DNA of 53,600 nt from an uncultured Bacteroidales bacterium (lineage in GTDB: Bacteria > Bacteroidota > Bacteroidia > Bacteroidales > F082), in NCBI GenBank assembly GCA_947164955.1, contig CAMUYT010000001.1, forward strand, positions 1 through 53,600, given 5' to 3'. Position 1 is the first letter of the stretch. The number at the start of each line of letters is the position of its first letter. The position numbers and the translations under genes are program-made. Positions 19,091 to 46,729 of the stretch are shown here, piece by piece. The notes beneath the pieces were generated by a model. The model made no database searches, was not told the origin of the DNA, and worked only from the letters and a program-made list of their open reading frames with translations.

Positions 19091-19104
19091 TGCGTTTGCT
19101 GTTA

Positions 19105-19347
19105 GGTGTTGTATGGCTGTCGGGCTGTCGTAATTCCCCCCTTCAAGGGGGCAGGGGGATTGGGCAGCATTTATATGTCGTTTTTTTGGGCAGGGACTCA
19201 CGTCGCCTGCTTACTGATATGTCGTCCCTACGGGACTTTTGGCAGGGACTCACGTCGCCTGCTTATGGGCTTATGGGCTGTCGTCCCTACGGGACTTTGG
19301 GCAGGGACTCATGTCGCCTGCTTATGGGCTGTCGTCCCTACGGGACT
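19105..19347. repeat. Tandem array of 4-5 copies of a ~52-59-bp unit made of two hairpin-forming blocks
   Basis: Block A GGGCAGGGACTCACGTCGCCTGCTTA occurs at 19188, 19241 and 19299. Block B TGTCGTCCCTACGGGACT occurs at 19220, 19279 and 19330. Degenerate copies lie at 19105-19187. TTATGGGC is duplicated at 19263-19278. The last B copy supplies the stop codon of the 504-aa gene. Confidence 0.85.
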
Positions 19348-22171: not shown

Positions 22172-22387
22172 TTGGAGGTCTGCTTGTTTATGAAATGCAA
22201 AAGTATGAAAAAAAACTCATGTAACTCACAAGTGCGAGAGGTGGCAAGGCCGAAAAATGCGTTATATTGCCATGAAAAAGGAAAATGGACTTTTTGTCAA
22301 AAAATCAAGCAAAAATCATTGTTATATTAAATAAATCACTATTTTTGAAGCGATAAAAATATAGTAATTAACTTTAAAATTTTGATT

Positions 22388-28300: not shown

Positions 28301-28753
28301 CCGATAGGGGAAATGTATTTTGCCGACTTCGGCGATATCCTTGATCAAGGTCGAGGCCTTATCATCAACTCGCAGGACGATGGCTTCGCACGCTATGAGG
28401 ACGACCTCTGGCAAGGCACGCTGAGCGAATTTGTGCCCGGCAAGATGTACAAAATCAAGGTTAACGAGGACTGTACCATTGTCGTCACCGTCGCGCCGGT
28501 CACCTCGACCTCCGTCACCATCGCGCCTGGCTTCAACTGGATGGGCTACACAGGTCCGGCTGGCCTCAGCATCGCCACGGCATTGGGAAGCTTCGTGCCA
28601 AACGAAGGAGACGAGATCCACGATGAAGACGGCATACGCATGGCTTCATACGATGGCGAAACCTGGTCGGGTAACCTGTTGCAACTCGTGCCTGGCAAGG
28701 GCTATCTCTATTATTCCAACGCTACTGAAAGCAAGACGCTGACGTTCGAGTAA
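22388..28753 (+). CDS. Giant BspA-like leucine-rich-repeat surface protein (about 2121 aa)
   Basis: The ATG at 22388 is preferred over the TTG at 22382. TATTTTTG -7 box at 22340-22347. The signal-like N-terminus is followed by three ~210-aa LRR super-repeats (TINS.AIA...FGNQVT.YT...I.DL.AW..I.F...Y.NPLYYA). Next comes a central region with FN3-like segments (TGYTATVSWTPA..., TTAYITWEPG...). A second LRR block covers about 27300-28150, followed by the shared C-terminal module. Confidence 0.9.
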   Translation: MKKLCKNQVINRCLMILVAVFCCLQTALAYDFSAVSPSGHTIYYNIVEGGYQIPRVSVTYPNTSESPWGNIQRPYGNLVLPETVTYNGTTYNVAYIGSKAFQGCAGLVSVVIPSCVITIEYNSFSGCESLTTVTINSASIAAGPYNSSYNLKNIFGNQVTSYTIGAVSTIGSCAFYGCTNLASVTLHHAILAIDNNAFYGCSNMYRVNITDLTAWLRINFVSKYSNPLYYAHNLYLNGTKITDLTIPNGVSTIKQYAFHGCSMTSVNIPNYTVTSIGNSAFESCSSLTSVYIGNSVTSIGENAFRGCTGLPSVFIPSSITVISAGVFRECSNLTSVDLPNGISQIGNNAFYNCSSLTDLVIPDEVPSTIGDYAFCGCSSLTSVTIPNTVNSIGNFAFSSCGSLTSVTINSNAIASLSYSELYNMKNKFGNQVTRYTFGSNITSIGQNAFYDCTGMAELILPSSLSSIGNNAFQNCSGLNRVLISDLNAWYEIDFANAYANPLYYANHFYVNTNEVVNLTVTSNISEIKDYAFVGYKGLHSVSIGYYVISIGNSAFENCSGLTSVTIGNSVNTIGDDAFKDCTNLTSVTLNNNAIASADYTSSNNLKTIFGNQVTNYTFGAIVYSIGKYACYGCTGLTSLTFPNTLQTIGLHTFNGCTSLTSVTLPSSVYFIDQSAFQGCSGLNGVVISNLAAWCAIDFGNAYANPLCYAKHLYLNNNEVINLTIPSSVSEIKDFAFTGSTGLHSVTFHSDVTSIGSQAFKNCTHLSALNIPSTITSIGEYAFENCSGMTSLTLPSNMSSISHGVFYNCTGLTEIHAGAMVPPVIAGSTTFGNVPTAIPVYVPLGSAPSYQAAQYWSRFTNYVGAIVPGDLTVTVPYEQEFYQSFIPSKWTSYEGQLVWNGSINKYTANLSTNVDHWYFGFVNGVFLSSHAWANIGNTNHAFWLVSPIMHLDGAYNMLSFDMALTQASGFLTPVTPGAQNNTRIFALVSTDHGLTWTKLEAWKHNTNTYSEIESLTPHGATFAYNLENYADQDIMVGFYVDCSNANDAYNRVHIDNFFVGEFDPSTPPTVAVDDITGYTATVSWTPAFAWQQGWDFYYKSEYDGVPYPNYASLETLQATGRFFHLTETSYALQNLTANTFYQVWVRHRDGSETGSWSSPLGFTTTSQCAPPKNPQVVTTQTTAYITWEPGQPNQTSWEIYVDPGWDMGEELEEPFFYMDGLTPGTAFEAHIFGHCTEGDGDSDPLYIEFSTDDYDHLTVNDGTYYNEFLVINGEETGSNNSKSQFIIPAEMLTEMQYSTIQKISFYSGQNGQPWGSSASFQVYMKEVDFFDFDAEGYCDDSFYDWDNLYQFNNTTLHIENGKMTIESGSGFGFHYTNGNLLIGIKQNWVGNNCQVAWYGVGTPNASPAMYEPSSYAPQCVQFLPKTTFAYEPDPYKPPTDFFAYPTSSNEVYFGWMPREGVTSYDIEVSWSPDFDEEEDQLLTGLEETDYTWIDIDYEYLFPSRTYYAHIRSHYVVDGTDHISSWSESFEFETLEACPVPTDLTATEVGNLIVELDWTETGDATEWVIAFQADGEVGERYLNTYHHPYYLEAPYLEPGTTYTVRIHPLCPNGGFVFCEPITFTTSSNIIFDDPAVKALCVASSTGWDTDRDGELSYTEAAEVTTLGDVFNNNDEITTFNELKFFTGLTSIVDHAFGGCGNLTSVVIPVGVTSIGTSAFSYCPNLTSVIFPEGLQTIGNYAFMYDFHLANIDFPESLITIGAQAFDHCTSLTYLFIPASVTYISYSTFIGCTGLEYVNVAPGNTVYDSRNDCNAIISTNYNELRVGCKTTMIPNTVTSIGTHAFRENTALTSIDLPESITAINDYAFLQCSGLNAITLPSSLTTIGKRAFRDCTGLQYITVEASTPPTLSTGSDDSFLGVDKTIPVYVLCDYMTDYYDINDSGTWGGFTNFIAIDCEQQSQVIALHQGWNWWAPIGEMYFADFGDILDQGRGLIINSQDDGFARYEDDLWQGTLSEFVPGKMYKIKVNEDCTIVVTVAPVTSTSVTIAPGFNWMGYTGPAGLSIATALGSFVPNEGDEIHDEDGIRMASYDGETWSGNLLQLVPGKGYLYYSNATESKTLTFE
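28265..28750 (+). other. C-terminal two-repeat module (second copy of the module at 16741-17178)
   Basis: Repeat 1: IALHQGWNWWAP...DDGFARYEDDLWQGTLSEFVPGKMYKI. Repeat 2: VTIAPGFNWMGYTG...NEGDEIHDEDGIRMASYDGETWSGNLLQLVPGKGYLY. Confidence 0.7.
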
Positions 28754-33555: not shown

Positions 33556-34659
33556 TTAAACGAATTCAAGTTGGTTAATGGTTTCCACCGCTTCGCCGAG
33601 CAGCGAGGCTGCTTTGGCGGGGGTGATGAGTTGGTTGCTGAGGGCTTGCAGCACGAGGGTGCGCAGATAGGTGGTGGTTTCGGGTTGCCAGAGGCTTTCG
33701 CGTACCCGCTCACGGAATTGTTCGTTGGTTTTCTTGTTTAGCTTGATGTTAAAGTGTTTTGAATAGGCATCGCTGATGATGCCGTGGAGGTGTGCCTTGT
33801 ACATGAGTGCCTCGATGGAGATGCCGTAGTCGCGCTGTAGGCCTTTCATCTCTTCGAAGGTGAGGCTTTGCCGGCAGTTTCCCAAGCGGACGAGCATCAC
33901 CGAGGTGGGGATGAGCATCTCGCTGGCGAATGCGTTGCAGAGTCGTTCGACGTCGGCGCCGGCCACGAAGTCGAGGATGAGGTGCGCCAGTTCGTGGAAC
34001 AGCGTGAAGCGCTTGCGCTCGGGCGTGTAGGTGGCGTTGAGGACGATCAAGGGAATCTTGTGGACGTCGTTGGCGCCATCGTCGGCTTTGCCGTTGGCCA
34101 TGGCGCTGGTGCCGTCGAATTTTTGTTCGGCTTCCACTTCGACGATGCGTACGCCGAGCGATTCAAGTAGTGCGAAGGGGGAGAATACGGGGCCGTTGCC
34201 CAGGTTGAGGGCCTTGCGCAGGGCGCGGGCCTCGGCTTCGGCTTGCAGGTGGGTGGCGACGGGCGTGCCGCCATGGTCGAGCAGGAAAGGTCGTTCGATG
34301 TGGCATACCTGCTCGATGTCGGTGATGCGTTCCATTTGATCGGTGGCGGCCTGTTGTATGGCCGCGATTTGTTTGCTGCCTAGGGAGGCCCGTTTGCGGT
34401 ACTCCCAGGCTTTCGGGGCGATGCTGACGGTGAAGGGCTGGTGGAAGTAGTCGACGTCCACGCCTAGGGCGAAGGCGAGAGCCGCCTCTATGGTTTCGGT
34501 CGGCATCATCTTGCCCGTTTCGTACTTGGCGATGGCGTTGGCTGTCACCACGAAGCCGATCCTCTCGCACAGCTCGCGTTGCGAGAGGCACCGCATCCTT
34601 CGCGCGTTGGCTAGGCGTTGCCCAAATACGTTGTCATTGCTTTCGTTCATTTTTCCCAT
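33556..34659 (-). CDS. XRE-family HTH fused to ImmA/IrrE-type zinc metallopeptidase (COG2856-like)
   Basis: HTH: FGQRLANARRMRCLSQRELCERIGFVVTANAIAKYETG. HEXXH motif in FTLFHELAHLILD. Confidence 0.85.
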   Translation of the reverse strand: MGKMNESNDNVFGQRLANARRMRCLSQRELCERIGFVVTANAIAKYETGKMMPTETIEAALAFALGVDVDYFHQPFTVSIAPKAWEYRKRASLGSKQIAAIQQAATDQMERITDIEQVCHIERPFLLDHGGTPVATHLQAEAEARALRKALNLGNGPVFSPFALLESLGVRIVEVEAEQKFDGTSAMANGKADDGANDVHKIPLIVLNATYTPERKRFTLFHELAHLILDFVAGADVERLCNAFASEMLIPTSVMLVRLGNCRQSLTFEEMKGLQRDYGISIEALMYKAHLHGIISDAYSKHFNIKLNKKTNEQFRERVRESLWQPETTTYLRTLVLQALSNQLITPAKAASLLGEAVETINQLEFV

Positions 34660-34884
34660 TTTTTCGAGTTTGGCTATTTGCTTTGATTTTGAGATTTGTT
34701 TCTGTGTCGTGCGTTTTCGCTTTCAAAAATATTCACTGGTTTTCGGTTTGCAAAAATACAACTTTTTTGAAAAACTGCAAACTTTTGAAGAAAAAATTTA
34801 TTTTTGGGCTTGTACTATTTTATTTATGCCCTATCCAAGCATTGGATTTTTTCATCCTTTATCTTTGTTTATTGATATTTTCCC

Positions 34885-34892
34885 TATCTTTG
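34885..34892 (+). promoter_or_regulatory. TAnnTTTG -7 box for the SNF2/R-M operon
   Basis: TATCTTTG lies 57 nt upstream of the ATG at 34949, inside a 289-bp AT-rich divergent intergenic region. Confidence 0.4.
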
Positions 34893-34948: not shown

Positions 34949-37900
34949 ATGGAACTGATTGATAACGTCACCAAGACGCTGCGCGATGACTTAACCGTGG
35001 AGATTAAGTCGGCAAGCAAGATTTCAATGGCTGCTTGCTGTTTCTCTATCTATGCCTTTCAGGAGCTGAAGGAGCAACTCAAAGACATCAAGGAGTTGAG
35101 GTTTATCTTCACTTCGCCCACGTTTACTGCCGAGAGAATCGACAAGCAAAGGCGTGAGTTCTACATCCCGCGCATCGACCGTGAACGCACCCTTTACGGC
35201 TCTCCCTTCGAAGTCCGCCTCCGAAACCAACTCACACAAAAAGCCATCGCTATCGAGTGCGCCGAGTGGGTCAAAAAGAAAGTCCGTTTCAAGTCAAACA
35301 TCACGAATAACACCCTCCCAGGATTCATCATTGTCGAAAACGACGACGCGCATACCTATACGCCTGTAAACGGCTTCACTACAACCGACTTAGGCTGTGA
35401 GCGCGGCAACAGCATGATGAACTTCGTCAACAAGGTGGATGGCTCAAACGCCCGTCAGTATCTCCGTGTGTTCAACGAGCTTTGGAACAACGACAAAGAC
35501 TTTGCCGATGTCACTGACGACATCATCGATCATATTTCCAACATCTATCGCGAGAACTCCCCGGAGTTCATTTATTTCGTTACCCTCTACAACATCTTCA
35601 ACGAGTTTCTTGAAGATATTTCCGAGGATGTTCTTCCCAATGAGGCCACTGGTTTCAAGGACAGCCAAATCTGGAACAAGCTCTACGACTTCCAAAAAGA
35701 CGCAGCCTTGGCCATTATCAACAAATTAGAGAAATACAACGGCTGCATCCTTGCCGACAGTGTGGGTCTGGGTAAGACCTTCACCGCACTGGCCGTCATC
35801 AAATACTACGAGACGCGAAACAAGAATGTCCTGGTGCTCTGTCCCAAGAAACTTTGCGACAACTGGATGACCTATCGCAACAACTACATCACCAATCCCA
35901 TCGCTGGTGATAGGCTTGCATACACCGTGCTTTTCCATTCCGACCTTTCGCGAGAAAGTGGCAAATCCAACGGCAACGACCTCGACAAAATCAACTGGGG
36001 CAATTTTGACTTGGTTGTGATTGACGAGTCGCATAACTTTCGCAACGGTGGCAAGCTTTCAAGGGATGATGATGACGACAACCCACGTGAGAACCGTTAC
36101 TTGCGCCTGATGAACAAGGTGATTCGTGCTGGCGTGAAAACCAAGGTGCTGATGCTCTCGGCCACACCTGTCAACAACCGCTTCAACGACCTCAAAAACC
36201 AGCTGCAACTGGCCTACGAGGGCGATACCAAGCGGATGGACGCACTGCTCAACACCAACACTTCAATTGACGACATCTTCCGCCAAGCGCAGAAGGCTTA
36301 CAACATCTGGGCAAAACTCCCCAACGAAAAACGCAACACCGAAAGGCTCCTTGGGATGCTCAGCTTCGATTTCTTCGAGGTGCTCGATTCGGTCACTATC
36401 GCCCGAAGCCGCAAGCACATCGAGGCGTATTACAACACCGAAGCCGTCGGCAAGTTCCCGCTTAGGCTTCCGCCTATCTCGCGTCGTCCGTCGCTCACCG
36501 ACCTTCCGTCGGCCATCAACTACAACGAAATTTTCAACCAGCTCCAAAAGCTCAACCTGGCCATCTACACACCTTCTGAGTTTATCTTGCCCAGCAAGAT
36601 GTCAAAGTATGCCCTCGACCCTGAGACACACGGCGCAGGACTTTCCTTGGTAGGCCGTGAAATGGGTATCCGTCGCATCATGTGCATCTTAATGCTGAAG
36701 CGTCTCGAAAGCTCCGTCAATTCTTTCCGGCTAACACTGACCCGTTTGCTGAAGCTCATTTCCAACACCATCGATACGATTGACCGCCATGAAGCTTATA
36801 TCAATGTGGAAGAGGTTGATGATTACGATTTTGATATTGAAGACTCCGACAACGATGCCTTTGTGGGCACCAAGAAAAACAGGATTGCCTTGGAAGACAT
36901 CGACTATATCAGCTGGCGGCAATACCTCCAGAGCGACAAGGAAGAGCTGGAGCTTACCCGCTTGATGCTCGACGACATCACCCCTGAGCACGACAGCAAG
37001 CTTCAGCAGCTCATTGCCGACCTTCGCGACAAGTTCGCTCATCCCATCAACGGCGAGAACAAGAAGGTGCTCATCTTTACAGCCTTCTCCGATACAGCCG
37101 TTTATCTCTACGACAACCTGGCCAAACCCATCAAACAGAAATACGGGATGGACACCGCTTTGGTCACAGGCGACGTGGACGCGCGTAGCACTTTGAAGTT
37201 GAAGGAAAAACTCGACTTCAACAAAGTGCTGACCCTCTTTTCGCCCATATCCAAGGAAAAAGAGTCCATCTATCCCAATATCCATGAGGAGATAGAAGTC
37301 CTCATCGCCACCGACTGCATTTCCGAAGGTCAGAACTTGCAGGATTGCGACTACCTCATCAACTACGACATCCACTGGAACCCCGTGCGCATCATCCAGC
37401 GCTTCGGTCGTATCGACCGTATCGGCTCCAAAAACGATGTCATCCAGCTGGTGAACTACTGGCCCGACATGACGCTTGACGAGTACATCGACCTCAAAGG
37501 CCGCGTTGAAGCTCGTATGAAGGTCTCTGTGCTCACCTCCACAGGCGACGACAATCCTATTTCTCCCGAAGAGAAAGGTGATTTGGAATACCGCAAGGCT
37601 CAACTGAAGAAGCTTCAGGAAGAAGTCGTCGACATCGAGGAGATGAATAACGGCGTTTCCATCATGGATCTTGGCCTCAACGAGTTCCGCCTTGACCTGC
37701 TGGAATATATGAAGACCCACGAGGATGTGGAGCATACGCCCTTCGGCCTCCACGCTGTTGTCGGCCACAACGAGTTCACCGAGCCAGGTGTCATCTTTGT
37801 GCTGAAGAACCGCAATAAAGGTGTCAACATCGACAAAAAGAACCGTCTGCATCCCTTCTATATCGTTTACCTTCGCAACGACGGCTCAGTGGTGGTCAAC

Positions 37901-38182
37901 CACCTATCGCCCAAGGAGCTGCTCGACAAATTCCGCAGCCTCTGCAAGGGAAAGAACATGCCTCAAACCGCTTTGTGTCGTGAGTTCAACAAGGAAACTC
38001 GTGACGGCTTCAAGATGGCACACTACTCCAAGCTGCTGGGCGATGCCATCAACAGCATCATCACTGTGAAGGAAAACAGCGACATCGACAGTTTCCTTGA
38101 AGGCGCTCAAGGCGAGCTGTTCACCAAGGAAATCAAAGGACTTGATGATTTCGAGCTGATATGTTTCTTGGTTGTAAAATAG
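34949..38182 (+). CDS. SNF2-family helicase with a ~190-aa non-helicase N-terminal domain (possibly degenerate PLD-like)
   Basis: Motif I LADSVGLGKTFTALAV, motif II LVVIDESHNFRN, motif III LMLSATPVNNRFNDL, and the C-terminal lobe LIATDCISEGQNLQDCDYLINYDIHWNPVRIIQRFGRIDRIGS. Confidence 0.9.
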   Translation: MELIDNVTKTLRDDLTVEIKSASKISMAACCFSIYAFQELKEQLKDIKELRFIFTSPTFTAERIDKQRREFYIPRIDRERTLYGSPFEVRLRNQLTQKAIAIECAEWVKKKVRFKSNITNNTLPGFIIVENDDAHTYTPVNGFTTTDLGCERGNSMMNFVNKVDGSNARQYLRVFNELWNNDKDFADVTDDIIDHISNIYRENSPEFIYFVTLYNIFNEFLEDISEDVLPNEATGFKDSQIWNKLYDFQKDAALAIINKLEKYNGCILADSVGLGKTFTALAVIKYYETRNKNVLVLCPKKLCDNWMTYRNNYITNPIAGDRLAYTVLFHSDLSRESGKSNGNDLDKINWGNFDLVVIDESHNFRNGGKLSRDDDDDNPRENRYLRLMNKVIRAGVKTKVLMLSATPVNNRFNDLKNQLQLAYEGDTKRMDALLNTNTSIDDIFRQAQKAYNIWAKLPNEKRNTERLLGMLSFDFFEVLDSVTIARSRKHIEAYYNTEAVGKFPLRLPPISRRPSLTDLPSAINYNEIFNQLQKLNLAIYTPSEFILPSKMSKYALDPETHGAGLSLVGREMGIRRIMCILMLKRLESSVNSFRLTLTRLLKLISNTIDTIDRHEAYINVEEVDDYDFDIEDSDNDAFVGTKKNRIALEDIDYISWRQYLQSDKEELELTRLMLDDITPEHDSKLQQLIADLRDKFAHPINGENKKVLIFTAFSDTAVYLYDNLAKPIKQKYGMDTALVTGDVDARSTLKLKEKLDFNKVLTLFSPISKEKESIYPNIHEEIEVLIATDCISEGQNLQDCDYLINYDIHWNPVRIIQRFGRIDRIGSKNDVIQLVNYWPDMTLDEYIDLKGRVEARMKVSVLTSTGDDNPISPEEKGDLEYRKAQLKKLQEEVVDIEEMNNGVSIMDLGLNEFRLDLLEYMKTHEDVEHTPFGLHAVVGHNEFTEPGVIFVLKNRNKGVNIDKKNRLHPFYIVYLRNDGSVVVNHLSPKELLDKFRSLCKGKNMPQTALCREFNKETRDGFKMAHYSKLLGDAINSIITVKENSDIDSFLEGAQGELFTKEIKGLDDFELICFLVVK

Positions 38183-38191
38183 GAGGTGTGT

Positions 38192-38791
38192 ATGCTCGGA
38201 TTGCCCAAAAGTACAGAAATAGCGAAGCAACTTCCCAAGAAGGCCATCTACGAGAAGTTCCAGCTGAAGTCTGCCCAGCGCGACCGCTTCGATTCCGATA
38301 TCAGCCGTATTGACATCGTGAATGTTGTTTCGCCCGACACGGTGCCAGGCTTGAAGGAAGGCGAGCATGTCAAGGAGTTTTATGTGTTGCTTGTCTCGCT
38401 GAAGCAAGAGCTGTATGACGAGAAAAACATCTTGCTTCTGTCAAAGTTAATCAAGCAGCACATGGTTTTTGCCTTGGTGTTTGAGGATATGTTGCGTTTC
38501 GCCGTGGTGCACGACAAACTCTTTTCCACTGACTGGGAACCGCTTGCCGATGCTGCGCTGCCCCTGATGGGTATTGACATGGACAAGGTATGGGAGCACA
38601 TAGTAACGACCATCGGAGGCTTCGAGGTGATGGAAGGCGTGACGATCGAGGAACAGATAACGATTGATGGAGAGAGGCTGAAAGTCATCAAGAAAATTGA
38701 AACGCTTGAAAAGAAAGTACGTTTAGAAAAACAGCCCAGAAGAAAACTGGAAATGTTCGAGGAACTACAAGAATTGAAAAAACAACTATGA
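38192..38791 (+). CDS. DUF4391-like protein
   Basis: MLGLPKSTEIAKQLPKKAIYEKFQLKSAQRDRF...EFYVLLVSLK matches my recollection of DUF4391 proteins found between helicase and methylase genes. The ATG at 38192 is preceded by AGGAGG at 38181-38186. The track start GTG at 38186 is an alternative. Confidence 0.65.
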   Translation: MLGLPKSTEIAKQLPKKAIYEKFQLKSAQRDRFDSDISRIDIVNVVSPDTVPGLKEGEHVKEFYVLLVSLKQELYDEKNILLLSKLIKQHMVFALVFEDMLRFAVVHDKLFSTDWEPLADAALPLMGIDMDKVWEHIVTTIGGFEVMEGVTIEEQITIDGERLKVIKKIETLEKKVRLEKQPRRKLEMFEELQELKKQL

Positions 38792-38792
38792 T

Positions 38793-39101
38793 ATGGAAAA
38801 AGTCCAACTGTCTAAGGAAGAAAAAAGAATACTAAAAGAAATAGCATCGAAAAAATACTCTAGCTCTACGCCTAAAAAAGATGTTGGAGTGATTAAACTC
38901 CTTGCGGTAAAGGATTTCATCCGAACAACAGATACTTTTGATGGTACGATTGTGATTGGCTTATCAGATTACGGAAAAGCATATCTTGAAGAAAACCCTA
39001 AACTTCATAATCCTAGCATATTCGACGACAAAAAATATATCATAAATACAATCATTTCACTTGTAGCCCTTACAGTGGCTATAATAGCATTATTCAAATA
39101 G
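38793..39101 (+). CDS. Small C-terminally membrane-anchored protein (102 aa), unknown function
   Basis: MEKVQLSKEEKRILKEIASKKY... with a C-terminal TM helix IINTIISLVALTVAIIALF. It is very AT-rich: 18/60 G+C in my hand count of 38801-38860. It lies 1 nt after DUF4391 and 3 nt before mod. Confidence 0.6.
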   Translation: MEKVQLSKEEKRILKEIASKKYSSSTPKKDVGVIKLLAVKDFIRTTDTFDGTIVIGLSDYGKAYLEENPKLHNPSIFDDKKYIINTIISLVALTVAIIALFK

Positions 39102-39104
39102 ACT

Positions 39105-40970
39105 ATGGAAAAACTCAACCTCCAAACCCACAACATCGTGGACGAAAACATAAAGAAAATTGCCGAACTATTTCCCAACTGCCTCACCGAGCGGCTGAAC
39201 GAGAAGGGGCAGCCCGAAGCGGCCATCGACTTCGACATGCTCCGCCAGGAGCTGTCGAAAGACATCGTGGAAGGCCCCACGGAACGCTACCAGTTCACCT
39301 GGCCCGACAAGCGCAACGCCATCCGGCTGGCCAACGCACCCACCACCGACACGCTGCGCCCCTGCCGTGAGGAAAGCGTGGACTTCGACAACACGCAAAA
39401 CCTCTATATCGAGGGCGACAACCTCGAAGTGCTGAAACTGCTCCGCGAGAACTACCTCGGCAAGGTGAAGATGATCTACATCGACCCGCCCTACAACACG
39501 GGCAACGACTTCGTATATAACGATGACTTTGACCAGGACAAGCAGGAGTATGTTCACAACAGCGGGCAGTACGATGAGGAGGGCAAACAGTTGGTAACCA
39601 ACACCGAAAGCAACGGACGTTTCCACACCGATTGGCTCAATATGATTTATCCACGACTGAAAGTGGCTAAGGACTTGTTGAGCGAGGATGGAGTGATTTT
39701 TATTTCGATAGATGATAATGAGCAAGAAAACTTGAAGAAGGTTTGTGATGAAGTGTTTGGTTCTCGGAATTTCATTGCTGAATTGGTTTGGGAACGGGCC
39801 TATGCTCCAAAGAACGATGCTCGATTTGTCTCTAACAGCCACGATTATATTTTGATGTTCGCTAAAAATATTGATGTTTTCGTGATAGGCAGGCTTGATA
39901 GGACAGAAGAAGCAAATGCAAGGTATTCAAATCCTGATAATGACCCACGCGGAGTGTGGAAGCCGAGTGATATTTCGGTAAAAACATATAACGCAGCTTG
40001 CGATTATCCCATAACGACGCCCTCCGGGCGTATAGTAGAGCCTCCAGCAGGGCGCTGCTGGAGTCTCTCTAAAAACTCGTTTTTAGAGAGACTCCAGGAC
40101 AACCGAATTTGGTTCGGTCCAAATGGTGATAGTGTTCCTTCAATGAAAAGGTTTTTATCAGAGTTGAAGTTTGATGGCATGGCACCGACCTCGATTTTGT
40201 TCTATAAAGAAGTTGGGCACAGTCAAGAGGGCGCAAAGGAAGTCGTATCATTGTTTGGCGATAAAGGCGTTTTTGATGGACCAAAACCTGTGCGTTTGCT
40301 CGAAAGACTTCTGACTTTAGCCAATTTATATGACGACTCAATTGTCCTCGATTTCTTTTCTGGAAGTGCCACAACCGCTCATGCTGTGATGAAACGGAAT
40401 GCTGAAAAAGACATGAATCTGAAATACATCCTCGTTCAATTACCCGAAAAAGTCAGTGAAAAGAAAAAAGACCAAGGCTTTTCCACCATTTGCGAAATCG
40501 GCAAGGAGCGCATCCGTCGTGCGGGCAAGAAGATCAAGGAGGAATCACCGTTAACCACACAGAATTTGGATACAGGCTTCCGTGTACTGAAGTTAGACTC
40601 CAGCAATATGCAGGATGTCTATTACCGCCCGGAGGACTCAACGGAGCAGACCCTGTTTGAGGACAACATCAAGCCCGACCGCTCGTCGGAGGACTTGCTC
40701 TTCCAAGTGATGCTGGAGTGCAACCTGCCGCTGTCCGCCAAAATCGAAACCGAGAAGATAGCCGGCAAGGAAGTGTTCTCCGTCAACGAGGGCTACCTCA
40801 TCGCCTGCTTCGACGAAAAGGTGAACGAGGACGTCATCAAGGAAGTGGCCAAACGCCAGCCCTATTACTTCGTCATGCGCGACAGCAGTATGGCCTCAGA
40901 TAATGTTGCAGACAATTTTGAACAAATCTTCCAAGCTTATAGCAAAGACACTATCAGAAGGGTTTTGTAA
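39105..40970 (+). CDS. mod: Type III R-M methyltransferase (Mod), N6-adenine beta-class
   Basis: Motif IV IYIDPPYNTGNDFVYNDDF lies upstream of motif I LDFFSGSATTAHAVM, which is the IV-TRD-I order. FISIDDNEQENL and FDGPKPVRLLERLL are also present. Confidence 0.9.
   Translation: MEKLNLQTHNIVDENIKKIAELFPNCLTERLNEKGQPEAAIDFDMLRQELSKDIVEGPTERYQFTWPDKRNAIRLANAPTTDTLRPCREESVDFDNTQNLYIEGDNLEVLKLLRENYLGKVKMIYIDPPYNTGNDFVYNDDFDQDKQEYVHNSGQYDEEGKQLVTNTESNGRFHTDWLNMIYPRLKVAKDLLSEDGVIFISIDDNEQENLKKVCDEVFGSRNFIAELVWERAYAPKNDARFVSNSHDYILMFAKNIDVFVIGRLDRTEEANARYSNPDNDPRGVWKPSDISVKTYNAACDYPITTPSGRIVEPPAGRCWSLSKNSFLERLQDNRIWFGPNGDSVPSMKRFLSELKFDGMAPTSILFYKEVGHSQEGAKEVVSLFGDKGVFDGPKPVRLLERLLTLANLYDDSIVLDFFSGSATTAHAVMKRNAEKDMNLKYILVQLPEKVSEKKKDQGFSTICEIGKERIRRAGKKIKEESPLTTQNLDTGFRVLKLDSSNMQDVYYRPEDSTEQTLFEDNIKPDRSSEDLLFQVMLECNLPLSAKIETEKIAGKEVFSVNEGYLIACFDEKVNEDVIKEVAKRQPYYFVMRDSSMASDNVADNFEQIFQAYSKDTIRRVL
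40058..40097. repeat. Perfect inverted repeat inside mod: CTGGAGTCTCTCTAAAAA-CTCG-TTTTTAGAGAGACTCCAG
   Basis: 18-bp arms and a 4-nt loop, verified base by base. It encodes CWSLSKNSFLERLQ in the mod frame. Confidence 0.95.
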
Positions 40971-42011
40971 ATGATGAAATTCAGTACCATAGAAGATTTG
41001 CAATCGTTGATTGACAACGAAATTGAGGAGTCCACTGAGTTGGAGTATAAAAGTACCTTTGTCAAGCAAAAACCAAATTGGAAGGAAGAATTGGCTAAGG
41101 ATGTCAGTGCTATGGCAAATGCAAATGGCGGGGTAATTGTCTTTGGAATTGCACAAAAAGAGTGCAATGGCCACTCAATTCCTGAAAAACTCACACCCAT
41201 ACCTAATACATTGATGTCAAAGGATAGTCTTTCTCAGTTATTATCCTCCAATATACAACCCGTTATTGAGAATTTAGAAATCTCGTTTATTCCATTCAAT
41301 GCAGAAACAGGTTTTTTTGTAATAGAAGTGCCACAAGGAATCACCGCGCATCAAAATAGATTGAGCCATTTGTATCATAGACGCAGGAATGCTACTATCG
41401 AACCAATGGAAGATTATGAAATCCGTGATGTGATGAACAGAAGCAAGCATCCTGTGATGGCTATCGAATTTGAGTTGCATAAAACAACAACTCATATCAT
41501 CGAAAAGCCTTTGAAAATAGCTGTGATGTATGACAAGCGTGAAGACAAACATACTATAGAAACCAAATACGAACTTAAATACAGGTTGTTGAATAAAGGA
41601 ACAGTGTACGCTAAATACATTAATTTCTTTATCCATGTTCCTTTAATCTTGAATCCAAATAAAGAAAAAGAACCTGAAGGGGTCGATAGGCTAAAGAAGT
41701 GTTTCGTTATTTCTGGCGACAATACTACAAGAGATATTACGTCTGTCAGGGGTCTTAGCAAAGAATATGGTCCTGCAAGATATGACCCAATTTTGCCAGG
41801 CACATTTGGCTGGTGGAAAAGTTTTGAATTGAGTTTTGATGACGTGGACGAATCCATTACCTTACCGCCTATTTGGTATTCCGTATTAGCCGACAATGCT
41901 CCCGAACGAAAAATGATTGTTGATTGGAATGACATTAAACTTTTTGAAAAAACAGAAACTATAACTAGAGATCTTAATAATATTGGATTTAATTCGATGC
42001 TTTATCAATAG
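40971..42011 (+). CDS. AlbA_2 (Schlafen-core-like) domain protein with an unknown C-terminal domain
   Basis: ESTELEYKSTF...LAKDVSAMANANGGVIVFGI is the hallmark of the AlbA_2/divergent-AAA family. It starts immediately after the mod stop. It is AT-rich: 19/60 G+C in 41221-41280. Confidence 0.7.
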   Translation: MMKFSTIEDLQSLIDNEIEESTELEYKSTFVKQKPNWKEELAKDVSAMANANGGVIVFGIAQKECNGHSIPEKLTPIPNTLMSKDSLSQLLSSNIQPVIENLEISFIPFNAETGFFVIEVPQGITAHQNRLSHLYHRRRNATIEPMEDYEIRDVMNRSKHPVMAIEFELHKTTTHIIEKPLKIAVMYDKREDKHTIETKYELKYRLLNKGTVYAKYINFFIHVPLILNPNKEKEPEGVDRLKKCFVISGDNTTRDITSVRGLSKEYGPARYDPILPGTFGWWKSFELSFDDVDESITLPPIWYSVLADNAPERKMIVDWNDIKLFEKTETITRDLNNIGFNSMLYQ

Positions 42012-42017
42012 TATACA

Positions 42018-42119
42018 ATGAAGTTCAAATTCAAAATACATCAACATCAGTCCAATTCGTCTGAAAGTGCCTCATCGTCGCTATCAAATTTAGTATCTTT
42101 GCCCTATGAAAACGATTGA
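42018..42119 (+). pseudogene. Relic of the res 5' end (33-codon ORF MKFKFKIHQHQSNSSESA...)
   Basis: 43 of the first 54 nt are identical to the true res start at 43691, and 12 of 18 aa match (MKFKFKIQQYQSDAVEST). The ORF then decays and stops at 42117-42119, overlapping the next gene out of frame. Confidence 0.75.
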
Positions 42120-43701
42120 CTATTATTTGAATCAGCCCGAAGGGCAGACCTACGACAAGAAAAGCGGTCGTATCGAGCCAAAGGCATTGGCGGTCACCAT
42201 GGTGGCTATGGCCAACGCCGATGGCGGAACCATTGCCGTCGGCATTGAGGATGACGGCACCGTCAGCGGCATCGACGGAATGACCGAGCACATCAACGAC
42301 TTGCTGCGTGTGCCGTTCGACTATTGCATCCCTTCGGTTAATATCCACCCTCAACGCATCCCCTGCACCGACAAGGACGGAAAGGACAACCACATCCTCA
42401 TTCTGGAGGTGGAGCAGAGCAGCGCCATGCACGCCACTTCTTCCGATGAGGCCTACTATCGTGTTGGCGACAAATCCAAGAAACTCTCCTTCGACGACCG
42501 TATGCAAATCATGCTGGCGAAAGGGGTGCAGTATTATGAAGATTACCCCGTTGCAAGAGCCACGGTTGATGATTTGGATTTTGACTTTGTTTCGAAGTAT
42601 TGCGAGAGGATTGGTTACAAGAAAGATGCGTTGACTTTTCTTCGCACCAACGGGGATTATATCCTGAACAAAGACGGCAAGGAACAAGTCAGTGGCGCTG
42701 CCATACTGTTGTTCGGAAAAGATCCACAGCGCTTTTTCCAACGTGCTTGGGTGCGTTTCATCCGCTATGATGGAACGGAAGAGAAAGTGGGGCGCGAGAT
42801 GAATGTCATCAAGGATGTCATCTTCAAGGGTCGTATCTTGGATATGACACGCGATGCCATCGCTTTCGTCAAGACACAAATCAAGGAACACACTTATTTG
42901 GGGCCCGAAGCACGTTTTGTGACAGAGGTGGAGTATCCCGAGTTTTGTTGGACCGAGCTGATTGTTAATGCCATAGCCCACCGCGATTACTCGATTCTGG
43001 GAACGGACATCCAAATCAAAATGTTCGACGACCACTACACGGTCGAAAGTCCTGGCATCTTGCCCGGGCGTGTCCGTATCAACAACATGCGAACCACCCA
43101 CTTCTCCCGCAACCCTAAGATTGCGGCTTTCATGAAAGAATATGAGTTCATCCGTGAGTTTGGTGAGGGTGTTGACCGTATGTATCGCGAACTGGAAGAA
43201 GGCGGATGGGAAAAACCTGTTTTCAAGCAGGATGACTTTATTCTTCGGGCATCACTCAAGTCAAGATTTAACACTGAGGGTTTACAGAAAGATTCAAACA
43301 AACAAACTGGAAGCCAAATAGATGACACAGATACTTTACAGAAAACTTTACAGAACAATCCAAATTCGATCCAAATCAACACTCAATACGTCACAAGCCT
43401 GTCCCAAGTCCTGTCCCAAGTTGTCCCCAGCTCGTCCCCAGCTTGTCCCCAGCTTAAAGACAGTCATTTTTCAATGATGGCCATGGTTATGTTGCAGCTG
43501 CATTCCCAACAATACTCAATATCTGAACTTATGAACGCTATTGGGGAAAAGAACAAGAACAGATTCCGCCAGTTTGTGTTAAGGCCTCTGATAAACATTG
43601 GCTTGGTTGAAGCTACCATCAAAGACGTTCCCAATAGTCCAAAACAACGTTATGCCCTTACGGGAAAAGGTAAAGAATTGATGAAGCCCTATGAAATTTA
43701 A
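42106..43701 (+). CDS. AlbA_2 + HATPase_c_4 (RecG-C-terminal-like) + wHTH protein, usually annotated as ATP-binding protein / putative transcriptional regulator
   Basis: AlbA_2: LAVTMVAMANADGGTIAVGIEDDGTVSGI. HATPase_c_4-like: ELIVNAIAHRDYSILGTDIQIKMFDDHYTVESPGILPG...FSRNPKIAAFM...EFGEGVDRMY. C-terminal PNSPKQRYALTGKG. It overlaps the res start by 11 nt. Confidence 0.8.
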   Translation: MKTIDYYLNQPEGQTYDKKSGRIEPKALAVTMVAMANADGGTIAVGIEDDGTVSGIDGMTEHINDLLRVPFDYCIPSVNIHPQRIPCTDKDGKDNHILILEVEQSSAMHATSSDEAYYRVGDKSKKLSFDDRMQIMLAKGVQYYEDYPVARATVDDLDFDFVSKYCERIGYKKDALTFLRTNGDYILNKDGKEQVSGAAILLFGKDPQRFFQRAWVRFIRYDGTEEKVGREMNVIKDVIFKGRILDMTRDAIAFVKTQIKEHTYLGPEARFVTEVEYPEFCWTELIVNAIAHRDYSILGTDIQIKMFDDHYTVESPGILPGRVRINNMRTTHFSRNPKIAAFMKEYEFIREFGEGVDRMYRELEEGGWEKPVFKQDDFILRASLKSRFNTEGLQKDSNKQTGSQIDDTDTLQKTLQNNPNSIQINTQYVTSLSQVLSQVVPSSSPACPQLKDSHFSMMAMVMLQLHSQQYSISELMNAIGEKNKNRFRQFVLRPLINIGLVEATIKDVPNSPKQRYALTGKGKELMKPYEI

Positions 43702-46700
43702 ATTCAAAATACAGCAATATCAGTCCGATGCGGTCGAAAGCACCGTTTCGGTTTTTGCGGGTCAGCCCTCGCGCGATGCTTTCCAATTTAGAAGAGACCT
43801 GGGCAAGCGCAAGTCTCAGCAGAAAATGGAATTCGAAGACGAATTTGTGGGCTACCGCAACAGCGACATCGAGCTGAGCGACCAACAGCTGCTCGACAAC
43901 ATCTGCAAGATTCAAGATGGTCAGGACATCAAGCAGTCGCCTAAGCTCGTCAGTGATTTAGGTCGTCTCGGGTTGGACATCGAAATGGAAACAGGCACGG
44001 GCAAGACCTACGTCTATATCAAGACCATGTTTGAGCTGAACAAACGCTACGGCTGGAACAAGTTCATCGTGGTGGTGCCGTCCATCGCTATCCGCGAAGG
44101 TGTCAACAAGAGCTTCACCATGCTCGAAGACCACTTTATGGAGCATTACGGAAAAAAAGCCCGTTTCTTCATCTACAACTCATCCAACCTCCAGCAACTG
44201 GATTCTTACTCCAGCGATGCAGGCATCAACGTGATGATCATCAACACGCAGGCCTTCGCCAAGGATTTGAATGAAGACAAGAAGACCAAGGCGGGCTTGG
44301 TAATCTACTCTGAGCGCGATGACTTCGGCAGTCGAAAGCCCATCGATGTGATTGCCGCCAACCGTCCTATCATCATCATGGACGAGCCTCAGAAGATGGA
44401 AGGCCAGGCCACCCAAAAAGCCCTGCGTCGCTTCAACCCGCTCTTTGTGCTCTATTACTCCGCCACCCACAAAACCCAACATAACTGCATCTATGCTCTC
44501 GACGCGCTGGATGCCTTCAAGCAGAAACTGGTCAAGAAGATTCAGGTGAAAGGCTTTGAAGTGAAGAACCTCAAAGGCACCAGCTCCTACCTCTATCTCG
44601 ACGACATCATCCTTTCCAAGAACCAGCCCCCAATGGTGCGCCTCGAAATGGAAGTGGAGACCAACTCAGGCGTGAAGAAAATCATGAAGAAATTTGGTGT
44701 AACTGACAATCTCTACCATGAATCCCATCTTTTGGAATACAAGGACTTCACCATTTCCGACATCGATGCTTTCCACAATACCGTCACTTTCCTCAACGGT
44801 GTGAAGATTGCCAAGGGCGAAGTGTATGGCGACAGCAGCGAAGAAGCCATGCAGCGCGTCCAAATCCGCGAAACCATTGCCTCGCATTTCGAGAAGGAAC
44901 GCGACTTGTTCAAACGGGGCATCAAAACCCTGTCGTTGTTTTTCATCGACGAAGTGGCCCACTACAAGAGCTACAACAGTGAAGGCGAAGAGGTGCATGG
45001 CCCGTTCTGGAAAATCTTCGAAGAGGAATATACCCGGATATTGAACGAAAACCTTTCCTTGTTTGAGGATGATTACCAAAAGTATCTCCTACAGTTCGAT
45101 GCCTCGCAAGTCCACAACGGCTATTTCTCCATCGACAAGAAAGGCCACGCGGTCAACAGCTCCACGGGGCGCGGCACCGACATTTCCGATGACATTTCGG
45201 CCTACGACCTCATACTGAAGAACAAAGAACGGCTGTTAAGCTTCGACGAACCAACCCGCTTCATCTTCTCACACTCCGCCCTTCGCGAAGGCTGGGACAA
45301 TCCCAACGTGTTCCAGATTTGCACCCTCCGCCATGCCGCCTCCGCCATTGCCAAACGTCAGGAAGTTGGGCGAGGCCTCCGCATCTGTGTTGACCAACAA
45401 GGCAACCGCATGGACTTGGAAGAGCTGGGTGATGAAATGGTACACGACATCAACAAGCTCACCGTCATCGCCAACGAAAGCTACAAGACTTTCGTGGCCG
45501 ACCTACAACGCGAGACCAAGGATGCCCTTCGTGAACGTCCCAACAAGGCCACTCCAGAGTATTTCCAAGGCAAGATGATCACTTTGGAGGGCGAGAAATA
45601 CACCTTGAACGCTCAGGATGCAATAGCTATCTGTGGCTGGCTGGCAGGGAACGATTATTCCGACGTGAACTACCAAATCACACAGACCTTTAAGGACGAC
45701 TTGCAGAACGGAACGCTGGAGCCAATGGGCAAGAAATTGGCCGGAAAGGAAGAACAAATCATCACGCTCATCAAAGCCCTCTTCGACGACAGCATCTCCA
45801 TCGAGGATATGATAGAGGACGGCAACGCATCAGCCGCAGCCACCAACCGCCTCAATGAGAACTTCAAAAAGAAAGAGTTCCAAGCCTTGTGGAATGAGAT
45901 TAACCACAAGTACGTCTATACCGTCCACTACGACAGCAACGAGCTGATAGAAAAGGCGGTTAACGCCATCAACGCCGAGCTGATGGTCACCGAATTGAAG
46001 TATGTGATGACCATTGGCGACCAAGAATCTGTTGACACCTTTGGTGATACCAAAACCACCACCCAGAAGTTGGGGACGGTAAGCACTTCCTCGGTGAAAT
46101 ACGACTTGGTGGGCGAGGTGGCCAAGCGCACCACGCTCACCCGTCGCACGACGGCCACCATCCTGAAGAAGATACGCCCCAGCAAGTTAGCCATGTTCCG
46201 CAACAATCCCGAGGAGTTCATCAAGAACGTGAGCCGTATCATCCGCAACGAGAAAGCCACCATGATTGTGGAACATATCCAATACGACCGCATCGACCAG
46301 ACCTACGACAGCGAAATTTTCACCCAAGAAAAACATTCGCAGAACGTGTCCAAATCATATTCCTCGAAGAAACACATCATGGACTACGTTTTCACCGACT
46401 CCGACGGAGAACGCACCTTCGCCGAGGATTTGGATGCCGCCACCGAAGTATGTGTCTATGCCAAGTTGCCGCGTTCCTTCCAAATCCCCACACCCGTAGG
46501 CAACTACGCCCCCGACTGGGCCATCGCCTTTAATCAGGGCGCGGTGAAGCACATCTTCTTCATCGCAGAAACCAAAGGCTCAATGGACTCAATGCAACTG
46601 AAGAAAGTGGAAGAGGCAAAGATTGGTTGTGCCGAAAAGTTGTTCAACAACCTTTCCACTTCCAATGTCCGTTACCACAAGGTGGATAGTTACCAGACCA

Positions 46701-46729
46701 TGCTGGATATAATGAAATCGATGGATTAA
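43691..46729 (+). CDS. res: Type III restriction enzyme Res subunit (helicase-nuclease)
   Basis: N-terminus MKFKFKIQQYQSDAV, Walker A METGTGKTYVYIKT, DEAH-like IIIMDEPQ, YSATH, REGWDNPNVFQI, and a C-terminal PD-(D/E)xK-like region YAPDWAIAF...FFIAETKGS. Confidence 0.9.
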   Translation: MKFKFKIQQYQSDAVESTVSVFAGQPSRDAFQFRRDLGKRKSQQKMEFEDEFVGYRNSDIELSDQQLLDNICKIQDGQDIKQSPKLVSDLGRLGLDIEMETGTGKTYVYIKTMFELNKRYGWNKFIVVVPSIAIREGVNKSFTMLEDHFMEHYGKKARFFIYNSSNLQQLDSYSSDAGINVMIINTQAFAKDLNEDKKTKAGLVIYSERDDFGSRKPIDVIAANRPIIIMDEPQKMEGQATQKALRRFNPLFVLYYSATHKTQHNCIYALDALDAFKQKLVKKIQVKGFEVKNLKGTSSYLYLDDIILSKNQPPMVRLEMEVETNSGVKKIMKKFGVTDNLYHESHLLEYKDFTISDIDAFHNTVTFLNGVKIAKGEVYGDSSEEAMQRVQIRETIASHFEKERDLFKRGIKTLSLFFIDEVAHYKSYNSEGEEVHGPFWKIFEEEYTRILNENLSLFEDDYQKYLLQFDASQVHNGYFSIDKKGHAVNSSTGRGTDISDDISAYDLILKNKERLLSFDEPTRFIFSHSALREGWDNPNVFQICTLRHAASAIAKRQEVGRGLRICVDQQGNRMDLEELGDEMVHDINKLTVIANESYKTFVADLQRETKDALRERPNKATPEYFQGKMITLEGEKYTLNAQDAIAICGWLAGNDYSDVNYQITQTFKDDLQNGTLEPMGKKLAGKEEQIITLIKALFDDSISIEDMIEDGNASAAATNRLNENFKKKEFQALWNEINHKYVYTVHYDSNELIEKAVNAINAELMVTELKYVMTIGDQESVDTFGDTKTTTQKLGTVSTSSVKYDLVGEVAKRTTLTRRTTATILKKIRPSKLAMFRNNPEEFIKNVSRIIRNEKATMIVEHIQYDRIDQTYDSEIFTQEKHSQNVSKSYSSKKHIMDYVFTDSDGERTFAEDLDAATEVCVYAKLPRSFQIPTPVGNYAPDWAIAFNQGAVKHIFFIAETKGSMDSMQLKKVEEAKIGCAEKLFNNLSTSNVRYHKVDSYQTMLDIMKSMD

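Follow-up and report, generated by a model that had tools for sequence, protein, structure and literature searches.

Two Schlafen genes between mod and res of a Bacteroidales Type III restriction operon: probable sensor-effector tRNases in a general cargo slot

Why does the Type III restriction-modification (R-M) operon of an uncultured Bacteroidales bacterium carry two Schlafen-type (AlbA_2) genes between the genes for its methyltransferase (mod) and restriction (res) subunits, and are their products controlled by the enzyme encoded around them? The two genes, herein termed g1 and g2, lie at 40971-43701 of a 53,600-nucleotide (nt) stretch of contig CAMUYT010000001.1 (assembly GCA_947164955.1), which we refer to as the window. 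We consider it probable, mainly by analogy, that g1 and g2 encode autonomous, self-contained sensor-effector nucleases directed at tRNA (tRNases), which would constitute a back-up layer within the restriction operon. This reading is favored because their architecture resembles that of studied Schlafens, which are activated via their own fused modules. Prokaryotic Schlafens, recognized as anti-phage tRNases in 2025-2026, act via fused sensors (PMC13056530; PMC13462974; bioRxiv 10.64898/2026.05.29.728809): tRNA cleavage by RorSlfn5 is triggered by a phage tail-assembly chaperone via its Ig-like domain (PMC13056530), the tRNA-cleaving Schlafen of Cash is activated by cA4 through Csx15 (PMC13462974), and SLFN-pAgo responds to target DNA and assembles, through its GHKL domain, into tetramers in an ATP-dependent manner (bioRxiv 10.64898/2026.05.29.728809).

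The two genes are intact and fill the interval from the mod stop to the res start exactly, and this part of the operon is arranged as follows.

39105..40970, + strand: Mod, the Type III methyltransferase (N6_N4_Mtase, 2.6e-34; PADLOC MTase_III, 1.2e-237)
40971..42011, + strand: g1, 346 amino acids (aa) (Pfam SLFN_AlbA_2, residues 20-146, E=1.8e-14)
42018..42092, + strand: decayed copy of the res 5' end (relic ATG and ~75 nt) within the 95-nt g1-g2 spacer; repeat D1
42106..43701, + strand: g2, 531 aa (Pfam SLFN_AlbA_2, HATPase_c_4 and Fic-like_C)
43691..46729, + strand: Res, the Type III restriction subunit (ResIII and RE_endonuc; PADLOC REase_III, 3.6e-296; NF012027, 7.7e-113)

The TAA stop codon of mod directly abuts the ATG of g1, and the end of g2 overlaps res by 11 nt with the res start codon lying inside g2 (ATGAAATTTAA). 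A first-pass annotation made from the sequence alone had described an AlbA_2 pair wedged between mod and res without intergenic space at its outer ends, and both the coordinates and the junctions as read agree with it, as does Pfam with its domain calls (AlbA_2 in g1; AlbA_2, HATPase_c_4 and a winged helix-turn-helix in g2), at a level that chance does not explain. Judged by its predicted domains, the host operon is a Type III R-M system, namely an N6_N4 Mod together with an SF2-helicase Res that carries a C-terminal PD-(D/E)xK endonuclease.

The Schlafen motif of g1 reads E20-x4-E25-x-K27 (41028-41051) and its SAFAN box reads SAMANANGG, and in an alignment of 30-33 homologs E20, S21, T22, K27 and the SAMAN-x-NGG box are invariant, with E25 being either E or D. 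In the AlphaFold2 (AF2) model (predicted local distance difference test, pLDDT, 79) the N-terminal domain matches SLFN13 (5yd0) at a Foldseek probability of 1.0, and the models of g1 and g2 both match the N-domains of SLFN13, SLFN5, SLFN11 and SLFN14 (0.97-1.0). The C-terminal domain, residues ~163-334 (41457-41972), is all beta in the model, and its best structural matches are the Ig-like sandwiches of integrin alphaV, ApaG, arrestins and the prophenoloxidase C-domain; as modeled, g1 is likely a Schlafen domain joined to an Ig-like beta-sandwich. Residues ~160-346 have no match in Pfam, g1 matches no PADLOC or NCBIfam model, a sequence search of the Protein Data Bank (PDB) gave only weak SLFN5/14 matches, and viral contigs and plasmids gave only partial, N-domain-only matches. 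The family is compact, with proteins of ~340 aa (642 matches with full-length coverage), and its mean pairwise identity is 70% in the nuclease domain and 45% in the C domain. Its members are N/C mosaics, as illustrated by P0004 and P0013, which are 72%/94% and 88%/50% identical to g1 in the two domains, respectively. The C domain occurs in 111 clusters among 1.8 billion representative proteins, and these are nearly all of 310-385 aa with the domain at ~160-340, which points to a single architecture; ten distant C-domain homologs looked up among these clusters included no named Enterobacterales and were annotated only as 'ATP-binding protein' or 'hypothetical protein'. The composition of g1 is foreign, with a GC content of 0.366 and a third-codon-position GC content (GC3) of 0.357 against 0.60-0.70 in the operon backbone. 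We also considered that the start of g1 (ATGATGAAATTC) was derived from that of res and rejected it, as family members outside Type III loci also begin with MK(F/I/Y), which is thus native to the family.

The second gene combines an SLFN_AlbA_2 domain (residues 12-127, 42139-42486; 8.7e-19), HATPase_c_4 (residues 299-377, 43000-43236; 1.4e-17) and, after a low-complexity linker, a Fic-like_C winged helix (residues 463-519, 43492-43662; 5.7e-11). PF04326 is thus recovered by profile search in both proteins, and the ATPase profile, PF13749, in g2, as the first-pass annotation had anticipated. Across 33 homologs E12 and K19 of the nuclease motif E12-x4-D17-x-K19, which is accompanied by a VAMANADGG box, are invariant and D17 is nearly so; the acidic pair E48-D49 is invariant, and in the Bergerat-fold ATPase the same holds for E284, N288, H292-R293 and the G-rich boxes, with D294 nearly invariant. 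With PF04326, PF13749, a C-terminal HTH and intact ATPase motifs, g2 is by its predicted domains a textbook 'Schlatpase-HTH' protein. A structural search with its AF2 model (pLDDT 71) returned PDB 3lmm as a match along the entire protein (1e-15), besides matches to mammalian SLFN N-domains, to the ATP-binding domains of histidine kinases and to 4rgl, the C-terminal winged helix of a Fic protein. The PADLOC SLFN-pAgo model matches residues 30-389 at 2e-40, and two weak matches to Argonaute-associated Aga models were returned by the PADLOC/NCBIfam search. The DNA-binding end of g2 is, as its sequence suggests, a swappable module, because close relatives that are up to 96% identical over the first ~386 residues have a different winged helix (MarR/HTH_11 type), and because GC3 falls from 0.62 in the N-terminal part to 0.45 in the C-terminal part. 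A recent tandem duplication as the source of the pair was rejected, the Schlafen domains of g1 and g2 being 30% identical over 102 aa.

The place that these genes occupy is not peculiar to them, as cargo of many kinds is found at the mod|res junction, which serves as a general slot for it. We fetched 80 related loci with Res as the probe, of which 77 show both Mod and Res, and the gap between the two genes is below 100 nt in 22, 138-185 nt in three and 350-3800 nt in 52. The first-pass annotation had held that Mod and Res are normally adjacent, which is not the case in this subfamily, where about 52 of the 77 loci carry cargo. By sequence, the cargo of the filled slots falls into at least 26 clusters. 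Nearly all of it is co-oriented with the operon, begins 0-12 nt after mod and ends at or over the start of res. By Pfam it comprises RhuM (5 loci), 23S_rRNA_IVP, Zeta_toxin, Abi_C and TPR proteins (4 each), AbiJ (3), the YhcG/DUF1016 nuclease and DUF2971 (2 each), HepT (2, with a small upstream partner ORF that is presumably the MNT antitoxin), and PIN_8, a pentapeptide protein, DUF3644 with EC042_2821 and a KwaB-like protein (1 each), and Schlafens occupy the slot in 6 surveyed loci in addition to the window. Close packing is hence a property of the host operon and not evidence of a special relationship between g1 or g2 and Res, and we propose that translation of res stays coupled to whichever gene precedes it. 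Empty slots also exist. The closest backbone, locus L021 (Res 95% and SNF2 helicase 97% identical), leaves only 2 nt between mod and res and carries no cargo there, and its alignment to the window places the insertion at exactly 40971-43690. A megablast of the locus against E. coli genomes gave no match beyond a few hundred bases within the helicase gene (77-80% identity), which led to the same helicase-DUF4391-Mod-Res operon in E. coli CFT073, with mod and res 13 nt apart. A 41-aa ORF between DUF4391 and Mod in CFT073, annotated as an 'ATP-binding domain-containing protein' (L020, 13921-14046), was rejected as an AlbA_2 remnant since it resembles the C-terminus of an SF1 helicase (..YVGITRA..), and by its sequence it would be what is left of a lost cargo.

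A second slot lies between DUF4391 and Mod and measures at least 300 nt in 35 of 45 loci. It contains AAA_21 with RloB (RloA/B-like), AbiGi, TIR, RhuM, YhcG and a Schlatpase, with RhuM, YhcG and Schlatpase cargo being common to both slots, and also a family of 593-608 aa without a named match in 8 loci (related loci L021-L100). A 2013 paper had already named the cargo families of the slots as toxins that reside within R-M operons (PMC3710099). The searchable literature gave no description of a two-slot organization in the SNF2/DUF4391 Type III family, and DUF4391 is mentioned there in only two unrelated papers.

How two cargos came to share one slot can be read from the spacer between them. 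Far from being plain intergenic DNA, it contains a relic of the res 5' end: 42018-42067 is 82% identical to the res start at 43691-43740 (blastn, 50 nt, E=2e-6) and the similarity continues to ~42092. The same relic, more decayed, is present in the g1-g2 spacer of L013, a locus of another, distant genome that lies beside a ribosomal-protein operon and has the order Mod, a 402-aa gene, g1 homolog, g2 homolog and Res. Loci with a single cargo are of both kinds, Mod-g1-Res (L105, L107, L108, L114 and L160) and Mod-g2-Res (L022, L024 and L025). Because the res relic sits between g1 and g2, the pair appears to have been assembled by recombination, and the simplest history would be that a Mod-g1-Res locus recombined with a g2-carrying locus ~75 nt into res and so stacked the cargos. 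The g1-relic-g2 block of the window is 80% identical to that of L013 in DNA where res is 69% identical, and in protein the N-terminal part of g2 reaches 96% identity where Res is at 67% and Mod at 54%. The cargo is accordingly judged to move independently of the restriction genes, because the identities of g2, Res and Mod diverge and GC3 is 0.36 in g1 against 0.60-0.70 in the backbone. In some loci the g2 cargo is incomplete: g2 fragments of 184-236 aa occur in L030 (7867-8421) and in L115/L119, where they lie downstream of g1, and g2 is split into 163 and 356 aa in L003 (2483-4078), a metagenomic copy 99.95% identical to the window, and Res is kept in all of these.

Several smaller features of the spacer and its relatives may be recorded here. 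The relic retains a 33-codon ORF (MKFKFKIHQHQ..., 42018-42119) that ends 14 nt inside g2 and could couple g2 translation to upstream ribosomes, although no function is required of it because the L013 relic has lost its ATG. The ~24 nt that precede the g2 start (TAGTATCTTTGCCCT-ATG; 42081-42105 in the window, 4303-4327 in L013) are identical in the two genomes, the remaining spacer having diverged, and they contain a TAnnTTTG half-site and lack the upstream TTTG box of the Bacteroidetes-type promoter motif. A stretch before g2, ATCAAATTTAG, vaguely resembles the mod 3' end of g2-only loci and is too short to be called a mod relic. In L184 (3153-6990), a close relative of the locus, g2 and Res are preceded by two Mod genes in tandem, of 633 and 610 aa.

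The host operon is a closely packed, seven-gene unit on the + strand (~34.9-46.7 kb) that consists of the SNF2 helicase, DUF4391, a small ORF, Mod, g1, g2 and Res, and its upstream features are as follows.

34864..34892, + strand: candidate Bacteroidetes-type promoter TTTG-N-TAnnTTTG, 57 nt upstream of the SNF2 gene; putative function
34949..38182, + strand: SNF2-family helicase, first gene of the operon (Pfam SNF2-rel_dom, Helicase_C and ResIII; PADLOC C3a139 'HKD+Snf2', 1.5e-124)
38186..38791, + strand: DUF4391 protein, a conserved partner of the helicase (Pfam DUF4391, 1.5e-29)
38793..39101, + strand: small ORF, 102 aa, with a hydrophobic C-terminal helix, in the DUF4391-Mod slot, the first cargo slot along the operon

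The SNF2 helicase is kept upstream of Mod/Res in most related loci. The 102-aa ORF has no family match in Pfam, PADLOC or NCBIfam, its GC3 is 0.28 against the 0.60-0.70 of the backbone, and homologs are found at the same position in L036, L055 and L059. The promoter motif matches five times in the window against 0.98 expected; a search for the full motif within the operon (34949-46729) gave no match, the one at 34864-34892 being the only full match ahead of or inside it, and scans for sigma-70 promoters and terminators gave counts no higher than shuffled sequences. That g1 and g2 are transcribed together with the R-M genes is inferred because no full promoter motif lies inside the operon and its frames abut or overlap. 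Promoter motifs face both ways between divergent genes, at 34724-34781 (-) and 34864-34892 (+), and the gene divergent from that of the SNF2 helicase (33556-34659, - strand) encodes an HTH and M78-peptidase protein. The best match to the backbone is a metagenome-assembled genome from red deer, the host being a ruminant- or gut-type Bacteroidales bacterium, and the same locus is present at 97-100% identity in six public sequencing runs.

Relatives of both genes are associated with restriction systems well beyond this operon. Of 80 metagenome loci with a g1 relative, 62 have an R-M or BREX gene as a direct neighbor and 67 have one no more than three genes away, although many of these loci are the same species resampled and the robust figure is that of seven kinds of partner: Type III (19 loci), a C5-methylase with a SacI-like endonuclease (27), EcoRI-type R-M (10), AlwI-like and Type IIG/ISP-like systems (3 each), GmrSD (2) and BREX (1). 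Besides the surveyed BREX locus, a g1 relative follows brxL in Bacteroides uniformis loci. Relatives of at least 59% identity were found only in Type III slots (19 loci, with Mod/Res no more than three genes away) and two short contigs with g2 alone alongside; those of 45-53% identity lie beside SacI-like, EcoRI-type, AlwI-like, IIG/ISP and BREX genes, and those of 39-40% near GmrSD. The g2 relatives are found in Type III slots, in Type I loci just before HsdS (right after HsdM where the upstream gene was identified), in a prophage-like region and alone, with one 77%-identical relative in a non-defense neighborhood. Hence the association with R-M loci on which the first-pass annotation had relied is strong for both families. 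Such associations are already on record: defense genes within 10 kb number 1.9 for prokaryotic Schlafen genes against 0.13-0.19 for housekeeping genes (PMC13056530), more than half of the defense-associated prokaryotic Schlafens are linked to R-M and other nuclease systems, for example type I CRISPR (PMC13462974), Schlafen-ATPase-DNA-binding proteins (Cluster 7) are 'tightly associated' with R-M, and Schlafens with uncharacterized C-terminal domains (Cluster 4) are associated with R-M as well (PMC13462974).

We propose that g1 and g2 are two different Schlafen defense genes without promoters of their own, that they are cargo of an SNF2/DUF4391 Type III operon in its mod|res slot, and that they would be transcribed with it, probably from the promoter-like site at 34864-34892. 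In each protein a metal-dependent Schlafen ribonuclease would serve as the effector and be fused to a regulatory or sensor module of its own. The sensor of g1 would be the Ig-like beta-sandwich, which varies faster than the nuclease domain, as does the phage-protein sensor of pSlfn5, and in g2 the module would consist of a GHKL ATPase, a driver of oligomerization in studied relatives, together with a DNA-binding winged helix that can be swapped. When a phage evades restriction, the sensor module would activate the nuclease, tRNA would be cut, translation would stop, and the phage yield would fall. The two genes may thus provide a second, abortive-type layer of defense whose tie to restriction lies in co-inheritance and co-expression and not in a specific protein-protein guard. 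In this scheme we infer the tRNA substrate, the triggers, the defense phenotype and that Mod and Res exert no direct regulation.

A number of points weigh against this reading. The defense role of g1 and g2 is drawn from sequence, structural models and analogy, and when seven Schlafen systems were tried in E. coli against a phage panel, two protected, a DUF262 fusion and RorSlfn5, the HisKinase fusions that form the class of g2 not being among them (PMC13056530). The TM-scores of the g1 C domain to its matches are low, and they support the class of fold and not a specific homolog. The placement of g1 beside restriction genes exceeds a loose 'defense island' effect and leaves room for real functional coupling. 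The Schlafen catalytic residues that a nuclease role, as suggested in the first-pass annotation, calls for are present in so far as both families show little or no variation in the E-x4-(D/E)-x-K motif and the SAFAN box; the exception is the third acidic ligand, which in g1 is Q62. This residue aligns with the third metal ligand of eukaryotic Schlafens, at what we take to be the 'GV-x-D' position (D252 in human SLFN11), and in the family the position alternates between E and Q, E64 is not conserved, and some members have no acidic residue nearby. The nuclease activity of g1 is less certain because of this Gln, and by its sequence we regard g1 as a likely, though not assured, nuclease.

Of the other explanations, one that we hold to be fairly unlikely is that the Schlafen-Ig family is generically coupled to restriction, activated for instance by DNA ends or fragments or when restriction fails, and that the mod|res junction is, in addition, an integron-like platform that stacks promoterless cassettes, with the res 5' relic as its footprint. 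Generic coupling in a more explicit form would have the Schlafens unbound by the enzyme and activated by DNA ends, cleavage fragments or persisting unmodified DNA, which g2 would sense through its winged helix and GHKL module. This would explain the linkage to many unrelated restriction systems and would give a use to the predicted DNA-binding domain of g2, and the authors of PMC13462974 speculate that R-M-linked Schlafens detect structures arising from DNA cleavage, although they explicitly leave the activation mode of these proteins open. However, g1 has no recognizable nucleic-acid-binding sensor and its variable Ig-like domain resembles a sensor of proteins, and the same slots hold many toxins that have no such logic. 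The explanation is attractive in view of how strictly g1 relatives keep to restriction genes of any kind, but we rate it as unlikely.

The first-pass annotation favored a guard of the PrrC type, in which the Mod2Res complex would bind g1 and/or g2 and keep them latent until a phage anti-restriction factor releases the nuclease. PrrC provides the precedent (PMC3710099), and like PrrC in the EcoprrI Type Ic hsd locus, g1 and g2 are suspected tRNA-targeting effectors inside an R-M operon and a plausible second line of defense. Both sit within the operon and show translational coupling to mod and res, the distant L013 genome retains the two genes together at the same mod-res position, and Type III slots are the only setting in which the closest g1 clade was found. 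PrrC, however, is an ABC ATPase with a HEPN domain, while g1 and g2 have a Schlafen fold without HEPN or ABC domains in Pfam, and PrrC is tied to one R-M family and physically masked by it, while the relatives of g1 and g2 occur with many systems or none. Masking by a single cognate R-M family is not what is seen, because the partners of g1 comprise seven kinds of system, with no common surface to bind among SacI-like, EcoRI-type, AlwI-like, IIG/ISP, BREX and GmrSD neighbors. In addition, g2 relatives stand alone or in a prophage, L021, the closest backbone, is without both genes, some loci retain Res and have only a truncated or split g2 (L030, L115/L119 and L003), and both proteins carry their own sensor-type domains. 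Type III-specific masking is therefore not supported: the families occur with unrelated systems, the L021 slot is empty, cargo and backbone are decoupled, more than 25 unrelated cargo families share the slot, and the proteins bring sensor-type domains of their own. What survives of the proposal is the back-up effector, which fits published inference (PMC3710099; PMC12839542; PMC13462974), and not effectors kept latent by the Type III proteins; a guard of this kind is improbable.

We give similarly little credence to the view that the genes are non-defense or decaying passengers that hitch-hike with a mobile R-M unit, g2 being a transcription regulator or nucleoid-type DNA binder or g1 being catalytically dead, since the annotations in use for both (no more than 'putative DNA binding domain-containing protein' or 'ATP-binding protein'), the Gln that g1 has where a metal ligand is expected (Q62), the non-defense neighborhood of the 77%-identical g2 relative and the g2 fragments in some loci are set against invariant nuclease and ATPase residues in g2, an invariant E-x4-(E/D)-x-K motif in g1, two intact, full-length ORFs, and neighboring cargo families that are overwhelmingly toxins and Abi genes. 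The reading of Schlafen-HTH proteins as COG2865-style 'transcriptional regulators' is an older view.

The reading of g1 and g2 as autonomous sensor-effectors can also be set against the systems that each most resembles. The pSlfn5/RorSlfn5 proteins combine a Schlafen nuclease with an Ig-like sensor (Taboada et al., Nat Microbiol 2026, PMC13056530), described in RorSlfn5 as an 'Ig-like beta-sandwich similar to integrin ectodomains' (PMC13056530), and g1 can be likened to them, by fold and by description, in its ~350 aa, its N-terminal Schlafen E-x4-(E/D)-x-K and its C-terminal beta-sandwich. As in pSlfn5, conservation is higher in the nuclease domain than in the C domain, and there are signs of domain swapping, while g1 differs in belonging to Bacteroidales and not Enterobacterales, in having Gln as the third metal ligand and in a family that is almost always beside restriction genes, no such linkage being described for pSlfn5. 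Kin of the Schlafen-GHKL(-HTH) type include the N-terminal module of the SLFN-pAgo RzAgo (bioRxiv 10.64898/2026.05.29.728809), 'HisKinase-HTH' (PMC13056530) and Cluster 7 (PMC13462974), and Schlafen-HisK-wHTH genes inside BREX loci have been termed 'backup suicidal effectors' (PMC12839542). With Schlatpase proteins such as DIP2311 (3lmm) g2 shares the order of its three domains, intact nuclease and ATPase residues and a full-length structural match, and with the BREX-embedded Schlafens it shares a position in a methylation-based restriction operon. It differs from SLFN-pAgo in having no Argonaute or other known sensor, and from other Schlatpases in its SNF2/DUF4391 Type III host and in a Fic-like_C winged helix that follows an unusually long linker. 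Toxin and Abi genes embedded in R-M loci (RloA/B/C, RhuM, Abi2/AbiD/F, AbiJ and EC042_2821) were listed by Anantharaman et al. (2013, PMC3710099) and interpreted as a multi-pronged defense (PMC3710099); these families occupy the mod|res and DUF4391|mod slots in the manner of g1 and g2, although they have mostly been discussed for Type I loci and the host here is Type III.

Elsewhere in the window, a three-gene cluster on the - strand (17189-22171) may be another defense module and encodes an SF1 helicase (AAA_11/AAA_12, 670 aa), a 504-aa protein without a match and an HD/HD_assoc phosphohydrolase (439 aa). Two giant ORFs lie at 11713-17181 (1822 aa, no Pfam match) and 22382-28753 (2123 aa, with BspA-type leucine-rich repeats and fn3).

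The association of Schlafens with restriction has already been reported in three 2026 papers, and the locus is in this respect a clear and fairly ordinary example. What our analysis adds is the likely Ig-like nature of the g1 C domain, the recombination footprint between g1 and g2, the breadth of the restriction partners of g1 and the two-slot cargo organization of the SNF2/DUF4391 Type III family, a little-described family that serves as a scaffold with two slots for defense-gene cargo. With two Schlafen architectures in tandem in one Type III operon, and with natural relatives that have an empty slot or a single cargo, the locus is a convenient one for telling apart autonomous action, guarding by the enzyme and sensing of restriction products.

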